Source: a virus (lineage: Duplodnaviria; Caudoviricetes). From it: DNA of 64,000 bases. Under the pieces are notes generated by a model that was not told where the DNA came from, made no database searches, and was given only the letters and a program-made list of their open reading frames with translations. Below are positions 8,670-62,685 of the stretch, one piece after another (the first letter of the stretch is position 1; each line of letters begins with the position of its first letter). The translations under genes and the position numbers were made by a program. Where the stretch lies: IMG/VR virus record IMGVR_UViG_3300046522_000316, positions 32,001 to 96,000 of that record; one strand, 5' to 3'.

Positions 8670-8679
8670 TATTTACAGT
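8670..8679 (-). promoter_or_regulatory. ACTGTAAATA motif, putative phage promoter
   Basis: Intergenic, ~37 nt upstream of the 8633 start; same motif recurs before several replication genes. Confidence 0.6.
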
Positions 8680-11891: not shown

Positions 11892-12320
11892 TTAAAACTT
11901 CGGATAAAGGTGGCGGTATTCCTCCGTCATACTGAATTCGCTACCGATGTGAATATTGAAACGATATTCGCTGTCGGCGGTCATCCTGTTAACGCAGTCG
12001 ATCAAGTCTTTGGCGGGCCAGTTACGGGCGTAAACATTCATGCGGGTACGTGGTGTATTTACAGTCTCCAGCGCCCGCACACAATGCAGAAAAACTTCGT
12101 CGAGATTCGTATAGGTCGCGACCACAAGGGCCGGGCAACCTTTGTGGAAAAGCACCGGCACAATCGGATCGTCTTCCGAAAACAATTCGTGATGATCGCC
12201 GGTTTTAAATTGCTGCATCGTCGTGTACAAAGTCCACGATGGTTTCGGGCCGGGCAGCATTACCACGGGCGGCGCGCTATTCGGGAAACCTTCCTGCCGC
12301 GTCCATTCGATTTTATCCAT
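11892..12320 (-). CDS. Hypothetical protein
   Basis: Probable start MDKIEW at 12320. Confidence 0.55.
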   Translation of the reverse strand: MDKIEWTRQEGFPNSAPPVVMLPGPKPSWTLYTTMQQFKTGDHHELFSEDDPIVPVLFHKGCPALVVATYTNLDEVFLHCVRALETVNTPRTRMNVYARNWPAKDLIDCVNRMTADSEYRFNIHIGSEFSMTEEYRHLYPKF

Positions 12321-18758: not shown

Positions 18759-18768
18759 TATTTACAGT
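18759..18768 (-). promoter_or_regulatory. ACTGTAAATA motif, putative phage promoter
   Basis: Intergenic, ~35 nt upstream of the polymerase start. Confidence 0.65.
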
Positions 18769-26198: not shown

Positions 26199-26878
26199 TG
26201 CAAGTCTCCAATTGAGGCCCTTCGCCAGACGGCTAAGAGTTCTTTTTCTAGAAGCGGGTAATGCGGCATTTCTGTCAGAAAGAAAACCTCATATTTCAAA
26301 TAGAGGTGATCGCCCTTCAGGCGCGCAATGCTGATTTTCATGTCGCGATTTAAAACCACCACGTTTTCCTGCCACGGCTTTACCTGTCGGATCGTTCCGG
26401 GGCAGCGATCAGTTACGATGGTCACGGCTTCACCGCCACGCATTACTTTGCGGCGATCAAGTTTCAGTGAGTCAGGAAGTTCCTTTAGCACTTTCACTTG
26501 CACCATTCGATTCAGCAAATAATCGAGGGAGAACCGTTGAGCCTTCATTTTCACTTGGCCCACGATTTTGAAACCGTGAACAACGTTGGTCATGTCATCG
26601 GAATCAAACACGATTTCAAACGTATGCTTTTGCGGCTTCAGGTGATACAAAAGAAACTTGGAATGCAGCGCGCTACTGAAGGCGGCGTACAGTTTATTTA
26701 CAGTAAAGAAATCCTTCAAATTGTGGAGCGTTTTGACTTTTACCCCGGCCTGACGCAAAAGGATTCGAAAACCTTCTTTCAAAACTTTAGGGTCAAGCTT
26801 TTGTACATCGGGTAATTCTAAAAACGCTTCCCACGATCCGGCAAATTCCGGATCAATGTCAGGTGGCATCTTTAGCAT
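26195..26878 (-). CDS. Hypothetical protein
   Basis: ORF track, coupled. Confidence 0.65.
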   Translation of the reverse strand: MLKMPPDIDPEFAGSWEAFLELPDVQKLDPKVLKEGFRILLRQAGVKVKTLHNLKDFFTVNKLYAAFSSALHSKFLLYHLKPQKHTFEIVFDSDDMTNVVHGFKIVGQVKMKAQRFSLDYLLNRMVQVKVLKELPDSLKLDRRKVMRGGEAVTIVTDRCPGTIRQVKPWQENVVVLNRDMKISIARLKGDHLYLKYEVFFLTEMPHYPLLEKELLAVWRRASIGDLQ

Positions 26879-36299: not shown

Positions 36300-36605
36300 C
36301 TATTTACGAGTCCATGAGAGTTCCAAATCGTAACCGAGTTTGGTGGCGATCACGATTAACACATCGAGGTCGGCATGCACCAATTTCTCATGGTCATTTT
36401 CTGGAACTTCGTCATAGAAATACGGAGTGAGTTCGCGATTCAGCGGCCCGCCCATGACAAGGTATTTACTGCGCACAAATTCACGAAAAAGGCGGTCATG
36501 GTCGAGACGCGGTTTGCCCTTGAGTGAGGGCCGGGATTGACGATCCAATTCGTTGATGATCAGAGCGTAAAGTTCCCGCTTCATTTTATTTACAGTATGG
36601 TTCAT
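36300..36605 (-). CDS. Hypothetical protein
   Basis: Start at 36605 (ATGA overlap) or 36584. Confidence 0.55.
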   Translation of the reverse strand: MNHTVNKMKRELYALIINELDRQSRPSLKGKPRLDHDRLFREFVRSKYLVMGGPLNRELTPYFYDEVPENDHEKLVHADLDVLIVIATKLGYDLELSWTRK

Positions 36606-41330: not shown

Positions 41331-41623
41331 ATTTTGTTCCCCAGTAGCGCCCCTTTTTTAACGAGGGCGTAGGTCATGCCGGATACAACGTGGATATCGA
41401 ATACGAACATGATTTCCACGCTGGCGTTGCCTGTCCAACGCAGACCGACGATGCACGGGAATACTGTCGGCTCTACGTCTGGATTATTTACAGTAGGCAT
41501 CCAGCCCCAGTGGTCGAGGGCATTGATATCGTTTTCGATAAAGAATTCGCGAAGGAATTCACGGTACTCGCTTTCGTCACGAAGTGTTTTGGCTTCGAAG
41601 CCTTCACGCATCATAGCGAACAT
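41327..41623 (-). CDS. Hypothetical protein
   Basis: Probable start at 41623 or 41614. Confidence 0.55.
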   Translation of the reverse strand: MFAMMREGFEAKTLRDESEYREFLREFFIENDINALDHWGWMPTVNNPDVEPTVFPCIVGLRWTGNASVEIMFVFDIHVVSGMTYALVKKGALLGNKI

Positions 41624-47196: not shown

Positions 47197-47206
47197 TATT
47201 TACAGT
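47197..47206 (-). promoter_or_regulatory. ACTGTAAATA motif, putative phage promoter
   Basis: ~31 nt upstream of the clamp loader start, overlapping the stop of the previous gene. Confidence 0.6.
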
Positions 47207-50393: not shown

Positions 50394-51060
50394 TGCCGAT
50401 TTCCTTAACAGGGTTGGCTTGGGAAATCATTTCGCCAAGTTCTTTGGTCATCCAACCATTTGCAATCTGGTCGTTTTCGATGATGCCCATGTATTTGAAA
50501 CCGGCGTCAGTGTTGAATTGGAAGGCGCCGCCCGCGTTCATGGTTTCGTTGAAACGCTTCACGGTTTTCGCCCAAACTTTCCCGTTCTGGCCGACGTAGA
50601 AAACGAACACCGGATATTCTTCGCGCTTGTCTTCGCGTGCGCCTTCGTTGGCGAATCCGAGAACCAGATACGGGATGCTGTTCGTGTGGTGCGTGTAGAT
50701 CGAACCGAGGCCCGGCAGAATGTCGTCGCCCACAATCGTGGTGCCGAACGCAGGCACAGGGGATTCGATGCGTACAGGCGGTTTGTTGATGATCGACAGG
50801 CTACCGATTTCGTGCGGGTAGAAAAGTTTCGTGATGCCCGTCGAAATATGCACGCCAACCATAACCGAATCATCGGCGGCGGTTACGTCGTAAGTTTCTT
50901 TGTGGTGGTCAACGATTTGGTGCTGACCGGGAATGCACGAACGATAACGCAGCACGCCGTTTTTTACCGTGACATTGTAAACGGGGCCGCTATTGCGCAG
51001 GGCCAGCAGCTGGTCAAGCAGTTCGTTTACTTGCGATTCAGAATAACTCATTATTTTCAC
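50377..51060 (-). CDS. Hypothetical protein with DUF1653-like domain
   Basis: GSIYTHHTNSIPYLVLGFAN...VFYVGQNGKVWAKTVKRF resembles DUF1653 (G..Y.H.KG..Y.V...A...VVY......W.RP..MF). Confidence 0.5.
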   Translation of the reverse strand: MKIMSYSESQVNELLDQLLALRNSGPVYNVTVKNGVLRYRSCIPGQHQIVDHHKETYDVTAADDSVMVGVHISTGITKLFYPHEIGSLSIINKPPVRIESPVPAFGTTIVGDDILPGLGSIYTHHTNSIPYLVLGFANEGAREDKREEYPVFVFYVGQNGKVWAKTVKRFNETMNAGGAFQFNTDAGFKYMGIIENDQIANGWMTKELGEMISQANPVKEIGNDAKN

Positions 51061-51683
51061 ATACCTTGAATTTTGTTTTGCAGTAGGAGAACCATCGCGT
51101 ATCCGTGGGCCGCTACGTGCTGGCCGGAATCGCAGGTTCCACGATACGCATTGCTGATTACTGCTACCGGGTCAAAGTCGAGTGGCAATTCTGCCGCATC
51201 GCAAATTCCCAAAAGCTTTTCGATTAATTCAGGCATCACCGTAATCGGCAATGGCTGCATTTGTGTTTGCAGGCGAAGCGTCGAATCTTTCAAACTAATA
51301 CGACCGCGCACGTCCGAGAATTGAACGTAGACCCGATCATTGGCTACCAGCACCCGGACTTTTTTCCAGATATCGCTGGTGTCGCCGGAAAGCATCACCG
51401 ATTCAACGAAGTTATCGAAATTGTTGCGCACGAAATTAATCAATGTGCTTTCGACGTTCACCCGATCCAATTCCGCCTGAAGATCCCGACAGGCTTTGGC
51501 TTTGGTGCCGCTCGGTCGCCAGTATCCCAAACCGTTTGGAATCGTGTACGGGCGCTTTTCTTTAAAGCCGACTGCGGTGCCATTTTCGAAATAGTAGAGA
51601 CTGTTATCGTGAAGGCAAAACCCATCGGCAATAGCGCGGCACGAATTTACAAACGGTCTATCAAAGATACTGACCTCAAGCAT
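51057..51683 (-). CDS. Hypothetical protein
   Basis: 208-aa ORF; variant motif ACTGTAAAAT ~35 nt upstream. Confidence 0.65.
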   Translation of the reverse strand: MLEVSIFDRPFVNSCRAIADGFCLHDNSLYYFENGTAVGFKEKRPYTIPNGLGYWRPSGTKAKACRDLQAELDRVNVESTLINFVRNNFDNFVESVMLSGDTSDIWKKVRVLVANDRVYVQFSDVRGRISLKDSTLRLQTQMQPLPITVMPELIEKLLGICDAAELPLDFDPVAVISNAYRGTCDSGQHVAAHGYAMVLLLQNKIQGM

Positions 51684-51703
51684 AAGCGGTTCCTAGAAAT
51701 GGT

Positions 51704-52687
51704 TTACTTCTTAATAGATTTTACAGTATTTGCCTTCGTTGATTTGGCGACCGGGGCTTTCCGTGGTTTCTTCGGCGGTTCGAAATGGGCAGTCGTCAAA
51801 AAGGCTGCGATTTCCGCACTGACTTTATTTCCTTCGCATTTCTCGGCCAATCCATAGGTCGTGGTTTCTGTGAGAAACGGACGCTTATCGGCTTCCATGT
51901 GGCGCAATTGTGCCACGGCGATTTCCATATTGTGCATAAGATCATTTACACCGATCCGCTGGTGCATAGTCAGGTCGCCGCGTGTGTAAGGTTTTTGGTA
52001 AATGATTTGACGGGCCAACTGCAAGGCCTCTACGGCACACAACGTCACGGCCCGCGAGCGTTCCGCCATATTGAACAGGTCAAATTTGCTGTAGATTTTC
52101 AGCAGATTCAATTTGGCTTCTACGCGATCCTGTTCGGCATAAGCTTTCAGGTTTTTTCCTACTTCCATTTTCATGCGGCTGGTGTTGCGGTGCATGATCG
52201 TGCCATATTTCAGCATTTTAAATTCGGTGCCGCCACCGGCAATCGCAATGCCGGAATCGCCTTTCGTGTTATCCAGATAAAGCAGCACACCATATTCGTG
52301 CTTAGGCTTTTTGACCACATGCTTTACCCATTCGCGGCTGTACCAGCGATCCCCGTCCGGCACGTATTCGGTTCCGTTGATAAACGATACCTGCGCGTAC
52401 AGGTGTTTCAACAGGGGCCGGATTTCCAGATAATCAGCGTAGCTTTTGATGGAGAAACGTTCGACGATTTCCTGCGCTGCTGCAAAGCACGGCTCAATGT
52501 ATTTATCAGGAATATTCTTGGTGGTTTCAGGCGGCAACTGATTCATTTTCCCGTTGCCGTTTGTAATCGTGATCAGTTCCAGACACTGCATAACGAGAAT
52601 GGAATGCAGGCCCATTAATTGAACGGCATCGCACAGCCCGCGTCTCGAATCGGACAGGCCAAATTCGGGTAGGTAAACGGTAGGCAT
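51704..52687 (-). CDS. Hypothetical protein with Lys-rich C-terminus
   Basis: AAGGA RBS before ATG at 52687. Confidence 0.65.
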   Translation of the reverse strand: MPTVYLPEFGLSDSRRGLCDAVQLMGLHSILVMQCLELITITNGNGKMNQLPPETTKNIPDKYIEPCFAAAQEIVERFSIKSYADYLEIRPLLKHLYAQVSFINGTEYVPDGDRWYSREWVKHVVKKPKHEYGVLLYLDNTKGDSGIAIAGGGTEFKMLKYGTIMHRNTSRMKMEVGKNLKAYAEQDRVEAKLNLLKIYSKFDLFNMAERSRAVTLCAVEALQLARQIIYQKPYTRGDLTMHQRIGVNDLMHNMEIAVAQLRHMEADKRPFLTETTTYGLAEKCEGNKVSAEIAAFLTTAHFEPPKKPRKAPVAKSTKANTVKSIKK

Positions 52688-53303
52688 TTGGGTTTCCTTT
52701 TAACGGTTTGTTTCGAATGGCAGGCCGGGCGGCGGCTGGCGGGAAGGGGGGCTGCGGAACTGGGGGATGGGCGCCTTCGGCGCAGTTACCATAGGTAACG
52801 AGCATTAAACCGAAGGCCTATTGTATTGTCGCAAGATCAATACAACGCAGGCAGAGCTATCCTTAAAAGTTCAAGCATTCATGCAACGCTTCCGCCTTGC
52901 TTTCTGCACCGACGCTGGGTGTGGGGATTTGCCGGACGCTTTTCTATTACGGGGAACCTTCGGTTCCCGCTCCTAACGCTCCGCGTTAGTCGCTATCGTT
53001 CTCGCTTCGCTCAACTGTCTGGCTTTCTCGCACGTTCAGTGCGATTCTGCCTGTTCCTGTGACTCAAGCGGTTCGATTTGCAGGCTCACTGTGTTCGCAA
53101 CGTTCCAAACGATTTCTCGTTCTGTCACTCAATTGTTCAGCATCCATACTCAATCCACTATTTACAGTTTTCGGATTCATGTTTTTTGGTCGGATTCCCT
53201 GTACCCATTGGGCCAAACGCCGGGTTGCCATTCGAATCATTTGAATAAAAAGGCAATAAAAAAGGGGAACCTTTCGGCTCCCCTTTGGGTGGTTTGAATC
53301 GTT
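52688..53303. other. Large structured non-coding region (candidate origin or ncRNA)
   Basis: 616 bp without a credible ORF; at least six hairpins, a G-tract, strong purine/pyrimidine asymmetry; ACTGTAAATA at 53159..53168. Confidence 0.55.
53258..53286 (-). terminator. Rho-independent terminator
   Basis: GGGGAGCC-GAAA-GGTTCCCC then T6 on the minus strand. Confidence 0.8.
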
Positions 53304-54221
53304 TTAAATGCTCGAAGCAGTCAGCTTGTCGTAGAGTTCAAGGATGTTTGCGCTGAAATCAAACCCTTTCAAGTTGTGCAAACAAACTTTGCAATCCGGG
53401 TAATCGTGGGCCGCACAATTGGTTGGCATTGCCATCATGCGCGCAGGCAGTGGGCACGGGTCTGCATCCATTAGCAAACGTTCGCAAACCAGTTTCACAA
53501 CCTTGACCATTTGTTCACCGGTCAACACAAAGTTTTCACCGGTTTGACCGTTGTTGATTTGCACGGTTGCCATTGGTTCTTCAACCACACCGCATTCGGC
53601 ACCAACAGGATCTACCGCAACTGCTGCGTCACACGTCGCCGGATCAATCGGGCATTCTTCGACAGGAATTGCTTCACCCTTTTCAACAGCAGGCGGAACC
53701 GGGCGATCAGCATTCGAGATTTCGTTGATGGTATTCCCATTCAAAGAAATACGAATTTTCCGAGGGCCGTAAGTCTGAATGCAAACCGCTGTTTCACCGT
53801 CGCGCTGGAAAGTCGTAACGTCCGCGTAACTCGGTTCCGGTGTGTATGGATTCGAACACACGACCTCAGTTTTGTGAAGCAAAGGAGACGCAGCACCAGC
53901 AGAACCGGGGCCGTGCATGGCTTCCCATTCAGCCGGGGAAATGTCGCCCATGCTGGCGATTGCCATATTCTTTTCGTTTGGAATCCAATCCGGTTTGTCG
54001 CGTTTCTGTTCCAGCGTAGCGGCCAGTTCTGGTTTCAAACTCTGCCACAAATTGCTGAATTCACGCGAGTTGTGGGTTTCAATGCAGTCCGCCAGTTTAT
54101 CCGCCGACGCTTTGGAAAACAGCGGCATGATCATGCGCAACATGAGGCTGCGTTTCTGCTTCAAAGTTGTCGCATTCCGAGCCATGACGATCATGTTGGA
54201 TGCAATCGCTAATTCTTTCAT
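53304..54221 (-). CDS. Hypothetical protein with Cys-rich C-terminus
   Basis: 305-aa ORF, CAAHDYPDCKVC. Confidence 0.7.
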   Translation of the reverse strand: MKELAIASNMIVMARNATTLKQKRSLMLRMIMPLFSKASADKLADCIETHNSREFSNLWQSLKPELAATLEQKRDKPDWIPNEKNMAIASMGDISPAEWEAMHGPGSAGAASPLLHKTEVVCSNPYTPEPSYADVTTFQRDGETAVCIQTYGPRKIRISLNGNTINEISNADRPVPPAVEKGEAIPVEECPIDPATCDAAVAVDPVGAECGVVEEPMATVQINNGQTGENFVLTGEQMVKVVKLVCERLLMDADPCPLPARMMAMPTNCAAHDYPDCKVCLHNLKGFDFSANILELYDKLTASSI

Positions 54222-54769
54222 TAATCCTCCTGCGGAATTGTACGCACGACAGTGATTTCGAAATCCTCGGTGCGCAGAACCTTTTCGACCGTGGAATCAA
54301 TCCACTGATTTGTCACGATAATTCCACCTTCCGGATCTTTCTGCGCTTCCATGAACATGTCGAGAATTGCCTGCATGTCTTCGATTGTCGGTTCCCAATT
54401 TTCAGAACCGGCTTTGATGTGCAGAATGCGTTTCATGGTCTGCTGCGTGTAGCCGTCAACGAACGCGTCTTCCGGGCTGAACGATTCGTGGCCGTTTTGG
54501 TAACGCACGAAATAACCGCCAGTGTGAACAAGGTTGCGTTCCATGTAATCGTCGCCAACTACCGCAACAAATTCGCCGGTTTTATCAACCAAAACGTATT
54601 CGGTGTGGGAAGCAATCGGCAGCAAATCAACAGTGCCGTCTTCGTGTGGAATTTCTGCGTATTGCTGGGCAGGCACCGTGTCGTCGTGTGTGCCTTTCGC
54701 CTGCGCCGTGATGTGCGCGATTTGAAATGCTTCGACTTGTTTGTGGCAATTGTAGATTGGAAAATTCAT
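54221..54769 (-). CDS. Two-module hypothetical protein (common phage module plus portal-like segment)
   Basis: N-terminal HKQVEAFQI...GGYFVRYQNGHESFSPEDAFVDGY; C-terminal ILHIKAGSENWEPT...DPEGG. Confidence 0.65.
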   Translation of the reverse strand: MNFPIYNCHKQVEAFQIAHITAQAKGTHDDTVPAQQYAEIPHEDGTVDLLPIASHTEYVLVDKTGEFVAVVGDDYMERNLVHTGGYFVRYQNGHESFSPEDAFVDGYTQQTMKRILHIKAGSENWEPTIEDMQAILDMFMEAQKDPEGGIIVTNQWIDSTVEKVLRTEDFEITVVRTIPQED

Positions 54770-54933
54770 TCATAAACCTCGACAGTTGGAGTCCCGCGAC
54801 AGCCCATGTGTGGACGCTGCCCATTTGAAGAATCGTGGTGATACCAATCGGAATACATCGGCTCATGCATCCAGTATTCCCACCGGCCACCGATCAGGCG
54901 GCGATACCATTTGAACATCCGAAAGATATTCAT
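54766..54933 (-). CDS. Small hypothetical protein
   Basis: Probable start MNIFRMF at 54933, ATGA-coupled. Confidence 0.5.
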   Translation of the reverse strand: MNIFRMFKWYRRLIGGRWEYWMHEPMYSDWYHHDSSNGQRPHMGCRGTPTVEVYE

Positions 54934-55403
54934 TTGAGTTTGTACCCGTAGTGGATCGAACCACCGTTTGGGCCACCGTTGGAAACGTAACCGCCACGCA
55001 GTTCGAAAATGTCCTGCGCTTTGTTGATAATCTGCGTCCACTCTTCCGCGATTTGCGCATTGGTGAAAGTCAGGCGTGCGCAATTGTCCGGGCGATCAAA
55101 GATCAGGAACACCGAATCGGAGGCCAGCGCAATTTTCAGCAGGTTCGGGAAAACAGTCCACGGTTTCCACGCACTCAACGAAAGGAATTGCTTGTGGATT
55201 TCTGCGCGGACGCTGGCAGTCGCTACCATCAACGCCGATTCCAATTCCGGTTCGAAAAAGTTATTCGAATTGTTGGTGATTTGCCCGATGGAATGGCCGC
55301 GCAACGCGTAGTGCGCATCGTCGTCGTTTTTGACGATCAGCTGGCCGTCGATTGGCGTCACGTTGGTATCGTCGTCGGTGATAATCAGGTGAACGTATTT
55401 CAT
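54930..55403 (-). CDS. Hypothetical protein
   Basis: Coupled ORF. Confidence 0.65.
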   Translation of the reverse strand: MKYVHLIITDDDTNVTPIDGQLIVKNDDDAHYALRGHSIGQITNNSNNFFEPELESALMVATASVRAEIHKQFLSLSAWKPWTVFPNLLKIALASDSVFLIFDRPDNCARLTFTNAQIAEEWTQIINKAQDIFELRGGYVSNGGPNGGSIHYGYKLK

Positions 55404-60725: not shown

Positions 60726-60735
60726 CATTTACAGT
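60726..60735 (-). promoter_or_regulatory. ACTGTAAATG variant motif, putative phage promoter
   Basis: ~35 nt upstream of the primase start in the divergent gap. Confidence 0.55.
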
Positions 60736-62675: not shown

Positions 62676-62685
62676 ACTGTAAATA
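62676..62685 (+). promoter_or_regulatory. ACTGTAAATA motif, putative phage promoter
   Basis: Immediately after the terminator, 26 nt upstream of 62711. Confidence 0.65.

Follow-up and report, generated by a model that had tools for sequence, protein, structure and literature searches.

A conserved, structured non-coding element ahead of a gene with a TnpB-like predicted fold in Lu11-like jumbo phages: a candidate partner RNA

The stretch of DNA analysed here (64,000 nucleotides of IMG/VR record IMGVR_UViG_3300046522_000316, hereafter the window) comes from an uncultured relative of the Pseudomonas jumbo phages HRDY3 and Lu11. Between two of its minus-strand genes, which we call P0002 (upstream) and P0001 (downstream), lies an island at 52688-53303, the sole internal gap of at least 200 nucleotides when open reading frames (ORFs) of at least 110 amino acids are masked in all frames. 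On the basis of its alignments in 22 homologous loci, we conclude that this island is almost certainly a functional, conserved non-coding element and that it probably acts as an RNA. Since P0001 is predicted to fold like TnpB, the RNA may well be the partner of this protein, in the manner of an omega RNA scaffold, a proposal that we regard as the best explanation, at about even odds. The island would then be the gene for a highly structured non-coding RNA of about 430-470 nucleotides in Lu11-like jumbo phages, transcribed on the minus strand from a ACTGTAAATA-type promoter just past the P0002 terminator. This RNA would form the 5' part of the transcript that also bears P0001 and would serve the P0001 protein as its cognate scaffold, with a guide segment being optional, and the resulting ribonucleoprotein would act on nucleic acid during infection. 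We infer, beyond the sequence facts, that a stable RNA is produced and that P0001 binds it, and likewise what the complex targets.

Homologous loci were gathered by DNA patterns, among them the single-stranded motif CTTTTAAGGATAGCTCTG of the element, by flanking proteins, and by exact-protein look-ups. This gave 21 further loci, 22 with the window, from HRDY3, Lu11, IMG/VR contigs (80-314 kb), and metagenome or Logan contigs, one locus being partial. The order was the same in 22 of 22 loci: P0002 homologue, terminator, spacer, promoter box, element, C-rich tract, ribosome-binding site, and P0001 homologue, with an element length of about 480-600 nucleotides. An nhmmer profile of the element found exactly one copy in the complete Lu11 genome and exactly one in the complete HRDY3 genome. 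The element precedes the P0001 gene in every member of the family that was examined, the lowest protein identity being about 20% (Lu11, L013, L014, and L067), and P0002 homologues precede the element in all loci.

The island and a short flank aligned to HRDY3 at 73% nucleotide identity, with most of the flanking coding DNA unaligned. Over the loci, nucleotide identity to the window was 0.77-0.99 in the element core, 0.56-0.94 in the downstream gene, and 0.70-0.87 in the upstream gene, and the conservation of the core exceeded that of both flanking genes. The values for core, upstream gene, and downstream gene were 0.99, 0.87, and 0.83 in L056; 0.98, 0.85, and 0.80 in L058; 0.89, 0.75, and 0.75 in L061; and 0.80, 0.73, and 0.56 in L008. 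A first-pass annotation, made from the letters of the window, had proposed a replication origin or primase-loading site here and had counted a lack of conservation as evidence against its own proposal; the island is instead strongly conserved in the 22 loci.

No ORF in the element is conserved by position or frame among the relatives, and indels of 1, 2, and 8 nucleotides occur, in agreement with the first-pass description of the island as non-coding. A 27-amino-acid ORF at 53147 is disrupted by an 8-nucleotide indel in HRDY3. In Lu11, two small hypothetical coding sequences, gp130 and gp131 (L006:2415-2546 and 2766-2963), are annotated within the element. Because no ORF is conserved across relatives and indels are present, they are probably not genes.

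A scan of both strands of the window for perfect C-GDA-G triloops closed by at least 5 base pairs found four such hairpins, all of them on the minus strand, and three of the four lie inside the island. When the island was shuffled 5,000 times with its dinucleotides preserved, the shuffles averaged 0.008 hairpins; 39 shuffles reached one and none reached three, so the clustering pointed out by the first-pass annotation is real. The hairpins that it had listed were all recovered on the minus strand, namely P3, P5, P9, P10, and the GCGAAGC mini-hairpin (Table 1), the GGGAACC-GAA-GGTTCCC form of P6 at 52952-52968, and TTGTATTG...CAATACAA at 52821-52845. Its purine-rich interval was also borne out, the purine share of the minus strand being 64% over 52970-53160 versus 52% strand-wide. 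In HRDY3 the element holds three of the six C-GDA-G hairpins on its strand, and in Lu11 one of three.

Comparison of loops with stems in the relatives revealed that the stems swap by compensatory substitution while the loops stay. P3, P6, P8, P9, and P10 remain paired via changes on both sides. Six stems were found for P6 (GGGAACC/GGTTCCC, GGTGGC/GCCACC, GGTGGT/ACCACC, GTTCC/GGAAC, CTGGTTCC/GGAACCGG, and GTCCC/GGGAC) and three for P9 (GTTACC/GGTAAC, GTTATGG/CCATAAC, and GTTAGC/GCTAAC), and P10 occurs in four forms that gain or lose one pair. The loops of the element remain G-N-(N)-A (GAA, GGA, GUA, GAAA, GCAA, GUAA, and GUUA) with a free middle base, whereas the loop of the neighbouring P0002 terminator drifts unconstrained (GAAA, ATTC, TAAT, and others). 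Because the element loops hold this form while the terminator loop drifts, the alignments indicate that they are selected for their own sake. The linker GAACGATAGCGA is unchanged in 17 loci, and GCGAAGC is replaced by GCGTAAGC in some relatives.

Pairing and loop type bear on whether these hairpins function in RNA or in DNA. GNRA tetraloops are a hallmark of RNA, and the G-N-(N)-A loops of the element swap with such tetraloops. P5 carries a U.G wobble pair in four loci, and one locus shows tandem G.A/A.G there. Among the 14 closest loci, U.G pairs occur in P5 (four loci) and P6 (one locus) as against one C.A pair in P3, a balance that weakly favours the minus strand as the structured one. The minimum free energy z-scores of the two strands were near-equal (-1.99 and -2.07), and RNAalifold energies failed to discriminate between strands. 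The structured non-coding RNA that the first-pass annotation had offered as its alternative fits the terminator, the promoter, the compensatory stems in 22 loci, and the TnpB-fold neighbour.

The same features were examined for a signal at the DNA level, in which the region would be opened by transcription, letting the non-template minus strand fold into very stable GNA mini-hairpins. These would keep an R-loop from closing, serve as a loading site for a primase or primosome, or both, making the element an origin or single-strand initiation site. C-GNA-G and GCGNAGC hairpins have exceptional stability in DNA form and are found at the G4 complementary-strand origin, RSF1010 ssiA, and N4 promoters (PMC13037366); the first-pass annotation was correct on their stability and on N4. 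P5, P6, and P10 match the N4-type promoter hairpin form (a stem of 5-7 base pairs with a GGA or GAA loop of 3 nucleotides). The stems are almost without wobble pairs, the RNA-sense strand is purine-rich, and one relative has GTTA, a known DNA mini-hairpin loop. The surroundings in the window contain replication genes (DNA polymerase, large helicases, and an SbcC-like gene), and the DNA polymerase gene is driven by the same promoter class. However, C-GNA-G hairpins are not deployed elsewhere in the genomes as an N4-type promoter class would be, about 400 nucleotides are conserved including single-stranded linkers, which is beyond the needs of a hairpin signal, and both the exchange with GNRA tetraloops and the U.G pairs in P5 and P6 speak for RNA.

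Features expected of an origin were also looked for at the element. There are no iterons or repeat arrays, only short two-copy repeats, and no AT-rich segment that could unwind, the GC content of 60-nucleotide segments being 0.38-0.67. Within the window, GC skew does not switch and gene orientation is unchanged at the element. Cumulative GC skew in complete Lu11 and HRDY3 was weak and noisy. The element lies in a broad plateau (70-130 kb) in Lu11 and at a local maximum in HRDY3, so that the two genomes share no sharp extreme there. The transcription-primed origin or primase-loading site of the first-pass annotation thus received no positive support, and the adjoining gene with a TnpB fold gives a more specific explanation. 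We consider a DNA-level signal distinctly unlikely.

Another possibility is a phage RNA that acts in trans, unrelated to P0001 and processed from the leader. As a decoy or sponge it might, for example, titrate a host RNA-binding protein or a defence system. Short hairpins arranged as beads on a string, constrained loops, conserved purine-rich linkers with repeated AGCG, and very high sequence conservation would suit such a role. Its loop words are unlike those of known sponges, GGA becoming GUA or GAA in relatives, there is no repeated unit, and linkage to a single gene in 22 of 22 loci is not demanded by the model. It appears very unlikely to us.

We then turned to the protein encoded directly after the element. 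The AlphaFold model of P0001, built from a 17-sequence alignment, had a predicted local distance difference test score (pLDDT) of 85.8 and a predicted template modelling (TM) score of 0.84. A Foldseek search of the PDB with this model matched almost only TnpB, Cas12f, Cas12k, Cas12m, and Fanzor, with a best E of 7.9e-5. VIA comparison with ISDra2 TnpB (8exa_A) gave Z 11.0 over 252 aligned residues (model residues 3-303), and that with 8h1j_A gave Z 10.9. When the model was compared exhaustively, and independently of Foldseek, with 48,161 chains, the best 13 were all TnpB, Cas12p, Cas12f, TranC, Fanzor2, Cas12m, Cas12k, CasPhi, and Cas12e (Z 10.9-7.2), and generic RNase-H resolvases started below this set at Z 7.1. 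The ESM-atlas neighbours of P0001 were TnpB-type clusters (TM 0.45-0.51), and a language-model atlas search gave no usable match. The conserved acidic positions of the RuvC-like half are candidates for a D-E-D catalytic triad: of 31 members, 87% are acidic at D139, 97% at E220, and 81% at D238, and E292 is E or D in nine aligned members. P0001 ends in a Lys-rich disordered tail (51704-51780, minus strand), and its Lu11 homologue has an additional tail of about 130 amino acids rich in Lys, Glu, and Ala (L012:4900-5303).

To our knowledge, each characterised protein of the TnpB-type fold works with a structured RNA encoded beside its gene. The island is the candidate for such an RNA because it is the sole large structured non-coding element in the 64 kb, because it lies in the same transcription unit directly ahead of P0001, and because it is linked to P0001 in 22 of 22 loci while there is no non-coding room after the gene. 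The gene that follows P0001 starts 20 nucleotides later and has its own promoter box.

A number of results weigh against this pairing. The link of P0001 to TnpB is by predicted fold only: the protein had no Pfam match at E <=0.1 and no PHROG match, and a profile of P0001 run against 1.84 billion proteins retrieved 21 clusters of its own kind only, nearly all of 300-330 amino acids. P0001 lacks a CxxC zinc finger, having five scattered cysteines and no CxxC pair. The RNA would lie 5' of P0001, unlike the RNAs of TnpB, Fanzor, and TldR, which are found downstream of the gene or overlapping its 3' end, and it would be 2-4 times longer than known omega or guide scaffolds. No match to Rfam at gathering score was found in the window. 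For a guide or target, exact matches of at least 12 nucleotides and 16-mers with at most one mismatch were only at chance level or were promoter, terminator, or ribosome-binding-site words; this search covered the window, Lu11, and HRDY3 but not host genomes, and guides of 9-11 nucleotides would escape it. No long-range helix or pseudoknot was established, covariation being confined to local hairpins. GNA triloops are far more stable in DNA than in RNA (PMC13037366). Pairs predicted on both strands comprised 385 Watson-Crick, 1 G.U, 4 A.C, and 9 other cells, and the wobble test is uninformative because the shared stems are almost purely Watson-Crick. With almost purely Watson-Crick stems and several GNA triloops, RNA-level structure is not proven, and a role of the non-template DNA strand is also possible from sequence.

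Among public sequencing runs no RNA sample containing the locus was listed; four runs presumed to be RNA, placed on 50700-55300, consist of contigs that are probably DNA and stem from relatives (mostly less than 90% alike), and so carry no information on expression. Ten distant members of the P0001 family had no Pfam match at E <=0.01, neither OrfB_IS605 nor Cas12f1-like_TNB was matched, and PF01385 is absent from Lu11 and HRDY3. Over the island, Rfam at E <=10 gave two noise matches only (13-14 bits), and the window contains no tRNA or tmRNA genes. A pairing of the AAGGAUAG motif with a CAUCC/CUAUCC word before the C-rich tract fits the window, HRDY3, and Lu11, and was rejected as it fails in L008 and L010. 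We also rejected remnants of IS200/IS605 DNA ends (the element is too long, has too many hairpins, and is single-copy), a retron (the downstream protein has no reverse transcriptase domain), and a CsrA/Rsm sponge (the GGA loops are not conserved).

If P0001 and the island RNA are partners, we tentatively suggest, at somewhat lower confidence, that a miniature TnpB-derived protein (about 310-330 amino acids, no zinc finger) and the largest RNA of the omega type so far, encoded 5' of it and better conserved than the protein, constitute a vertically inherited core module of Lu11-like lytic jumbo phages. The complex could be an RNA-guided or RNA-scaffolded DNA-binding machine for phage DNA metabolism or gene control. 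It might form R-loops to open DNA, in which case the RNA and origin readings would be compatible, and the module would be an independent domestication of the TnpB fold beyond transposons and CRISPR. No TnpB-like module has been described for Lu11-type phages in the searchable literature. Should the pairing be true, it would define a new RNA-guided TnpB/Cas12 branch. This branch would combine an extremely small protein with an ultra-conserved RNA of very large size, and it would be fixed in the core genome of lytic jumbo phages and not in a transposon, CRISPR locus, or accessory region of a prophage. It would inform us how frequently TnpB has been domesticated, to what ends, and what the limits of trading protein for RNA are, and might supply a compact programmable scaffold. 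It would also be the first functional lead for two conserved genes of the Lu11/HRDY3 group that have no known function. Even without the link to the protein, a block of about 400 nucleotides at 98-99% identity, versus 80-87% in its neighbours, is a strong candidate for a new class of structured RNA.

The element is preceded by a box that the first-pass annotation had placed at 53159-53168 (ACTGTAAATA) and had described as pointing into the region with no ORF behind it. The box is present there and does point into the non-coding stretch; the second part did not hold, for the minus-strand P0001 gene begins 480 nucleotides downstream. Transcription would start a few nucleotides past the CTGTAAATA box. 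Boxes of this type (ACTGTAAA) number 11 in the window versus 1.4 expected, and usually lie 39-45 nucleotides ahead of a start codon. They precede the DNA polymerase gene and the gene following P0001, the latter copy being inside the 3' end of P0001. The Lu11 equivalent of the island box is annotated as a 'putative middle/late promoter', and the box resembles the T4 late -10 element TATAAATA. It is probably read by a phage sigma factor; the PaBG/Lu11 group has been described as encoding sigma factors rather than its own (N4-like virion) polymerase (PMC7412058).

The long distance from this box to P0001 could also mean that the element is an autonomous cis-regulatory 5' leader of P0001, whatever P0001 encodes. 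The element makes a leader of 480 nucleotides versus about 40 at other genes with the same promoter type, and neither an intrinsic terminator nor a conserved promoter occurs from the element to the start codon. Control would be exerted by Rho-dependent attenuation at a rut-like site or by CCUUCC/CUCCC words, similar to anti-Shine-Dalgarno sequences, that sequester the ribosome-binding site. The C-rich tract of the element is the only 70-nucleotide segment with at least 50% C and at most 20% G on either strand of the 64 kb. In most relatives it has 58-65% C and 8-22% G over 60 nucleotides, and in 17 of 21 loci its end lies 24-44 nucleotides ahead of the ATG, even though the sequence itself drifts. 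Composition and position kept while sequence drifts is the pattern of a rut site. The roles of Rho and of the promoter at this leader are putative, being read from sequence features.

Known attenuators, however, are much shorter, and their conservation does not exceed that of the genes under their control; here the core is at 0.98-0.99 and the gene at 0.80-0.83. No alternative (switching) structures were detected. A leader acting on its own account is unlikely in our view. It would be compatible with the island RNA as partner of P0001 if P0001 binds its own leader in autoregulation.

On the plus strand, which is the template, the interval of the C-rich tract (52719-52770) contains at least four G runs of 3-6 bases (GGG, GGGGGG, GGGGG, and GGG), and the C runs behind them recur in relatives. 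These runs could conceivably fold into a G-quadruplex in the template DNA, or the C runs into an i-motif on the RNA-sense strand.

The anatomy of the locus is summarized in Table 1. The P0002 terminator is present in every homologous locus, with changes in the loop and one G.U pair on the minus strand. It shares a 10-nucleotide arm, GGGGAACCTT on the plus strand, between its own hairpin (53264-53273) and P6 (52951-52960). In one wastewater run, many differently flanked contigs stack on the terminator, with a depth of 147 in the bin 53164-53317; because of this stacking, related phages probably use the same terminator sequence at further loci. The distance from terminator to box is 96 or 107-117 nucleotides in the loci and 190 in L067, and the nucleotide identity of the spacer to the window is 0.65-0.95.

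Table 1. Features of the island, its flanking genes, and the promoter boxes of the window
Feature	Position	Strand	Remarks
P0002 gene, 305 amino acids	53304-54221	-	helical N-terminal part, Cys/His-rich C-terminal part
Intrinsic terminator of P0002, GGGGAGCC-GAAA-GGTTCCCC and T run	53252-53286	-	terminator scan
Terminator-to-promoter spacer, 80 nucleotides	53172-53251	-	holds conserved TTCAAATGATTCGAAT (53230-53245); alignments
Phage promoter box AAAACTGTAAATA	53159-53171	-	same in all 22 loci
Variable 5' head of presumed transcript, about 30 nucleotides	53127-53158	-	
Hairpin P1, GAACGA-GAAA-TCGTTT	53107-53122	-	stem kept; loop GAAA/GUAA/UUUA/UUCA/UUGA
Variable region P2	53045-53106	-	lowest conservation within the 5' half
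Hairpin P3, TCGCAC-TGAAC-GTGCGA	53028-53044	-	stems in relatives CAC/GTG, AAC/GTT, TGC/GCA
GCGAAGC mini-hairpin (53004-53010) and linker GAACGATAGCGA	52990-53010	-	AGCG-rich purine block begins
Hairpin P5, CTAACGC-GGA-GCGTTAG	52973-52989	-	middle loop base G/A/U
Hairpin P6, (C)GGGAACC-GAA-GGTTCCC(CG)	52950-52969	-	loops in relatives GAA/GUA/GUUA
Variable middle region	52870-52949	-	
Single-stranded motif CTTTTAAGGATAGCTCTG	52852-52869	-	near-invariant, all loci
Long hairpin P8 (GCCT-GC-GTTGTATTG ... CAATACAAT-AGGC)	52816-52852	-	RNAalifold; both-side changes at 6 positions
Hairpin P9, GTTACC-TAT-GGTAAC	52785-52799	-	relatives: GTTATGG-GAA-CCATAAC, GTTAGC-TATC-GCTAAC
Hairpin P10, GCGCC-GAA-GGCGC	52771-52783	-	relatives: GCGCTC-GAA-GAGCGC, GCGC-GAA-GCGC, GCGC-GCAA-GCGC, GCGCC-GAAA-GGCGC
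C-rich, G-poor tract	52719-52770	-	conserved CCCCAGTTCCGC..CCCCC
Variable tail and ribosome-binding site AAAAGGAAA (52693-52701)	52688-52718	-	ATG at 52687
P0001 gene, 327 amino acids	51704-52687	-	TnpB/Cas12f-like predicted fold, Lys-rich C-terminal tail
(A/T)ACTGTAAATA boxes	8672-8679, 12058-12065, 18761-18768, 26697-26704, 36589-36596	-	
(A/T)ACTGTAAATA boxes	41487-41494, 47199-47206, 51720-51727, 60728-60735	-	
(A/T)ACTGTAAATA box	62676-62683	+	

The upstream protein P0002 had no Pfam or PHROG match, and its fold model was poor (pLDDT 47 from 13 sequences). Its helical N-terminal part is strongly conserved and common to PaBG gp159; a variable linker follows, and the C-terminal part holds a conserved cluster of C256, C269, H272, C277, and C280 that resembles a metal site. 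In PaBG, a syntenic non-coding gap of 1.48 kb (L054:2654-4130; PaBG 116153-117629) follows the homologue of the P0002 N-terminal domain. This gap is C-rich at its end and contains purine runs rich in AGCG; TTGACTACTGATTGCAGTA occurs in it twice, and words resembling (T/G)CGCTGGCGCTCA occur three times. The nhmmer profile of the element did not match it, and by hhalign the next gene, gp160, is unrelated to P0001.

Among known systems, the proposed module is most readily compared with TnpB and its omega RNA in IS200/IS605 elements and with the related Cas12f. A small protein with a WED-REC-RuvC-type predicted fold (Z 10.9-11.0 to ISDra2 TnpB) and a conserved multi-hairpin non-coding region adjoining its gene in one transcription unit are common to both. 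The phage system differs in that it has neither family membership at the sequence level nor the zinc-finger TNB domain, and in that its RNA would be upstream and of about 430-470 nucleotides, whereas the known RNAs are at the 3' end and of about 100-250. It also occurs as one copy at a syntenic position, is inherited vertically in lytic jumbo phages, and lacks TnpA and transposon ends. TldR proteins are TnpB-like nuclease-dead repressors, some of them encoded by phages (bioRxiv 10.1101/2023.11.30.569447). Their guide RNA lies downstream of the gene and consists of a scaffold of 97-100 nucleotides and a guide of 9-16 nucleotides matching a host promoter; in the RNAs of TnpB, Fanzor, and TldR alike, the guide is at the 3' end (bioRxiv 10.1101/2023.11.30.569447). 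P0001 would share with TldR a domesticated, phage-borne protein of TnpB type that lacks the C-terminal zinc finger and occupies one fixed locus together with a conserved RNA; its RNA would differ in being upstream, four times larger, and without a target match in the window, Lu11, or HRDY3. IscB and IsrB offer the precedent of a large structured RNA 5' of the protein gene, a small protein being offset by a big RNA. The predicted fold of P0001 is nevertheless that of TnpB/Cas12, IsrB (8dmb_P) reaching only Z 6.0 in the RNase-H part, far below the TnpB entries, and the island has no match to HEARO or any other Rfam family, including ROOL, GOLLD, and group I and II introns.

The remaining likenesses concern the other explanations. 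Like the DNA mini-hairpin signals of G4, RSF1010 ssiA, and N4 (PMC13037366), the island has C-GAA-G, C-GGA-G, and GCGAAGC hairpins with stems of 5-7 base pairs on one strand; the known signals use 1-3 hairpins for a dedicated primase or polymerase, whereas the island has at least eight in a 400-nucleotide block at a single locus. ColE1 RNA II and T4 oriF/oriG resemble it as promoter-driven transcripts of several hundred nucleotides over a non-coding region near replication genes. They differ in that no evidence of an origin was found at the island and an antisense regulator or RNase H site is not readable from its sequence, and the T4 origins, unlike the island, are without conserved hairpin arrays. 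With a Rho-dependent attenuator leader, in which the part of Rho is here putative, the island has in common a C-rich, G-poor tract ahead of the first gene at a conserved position.

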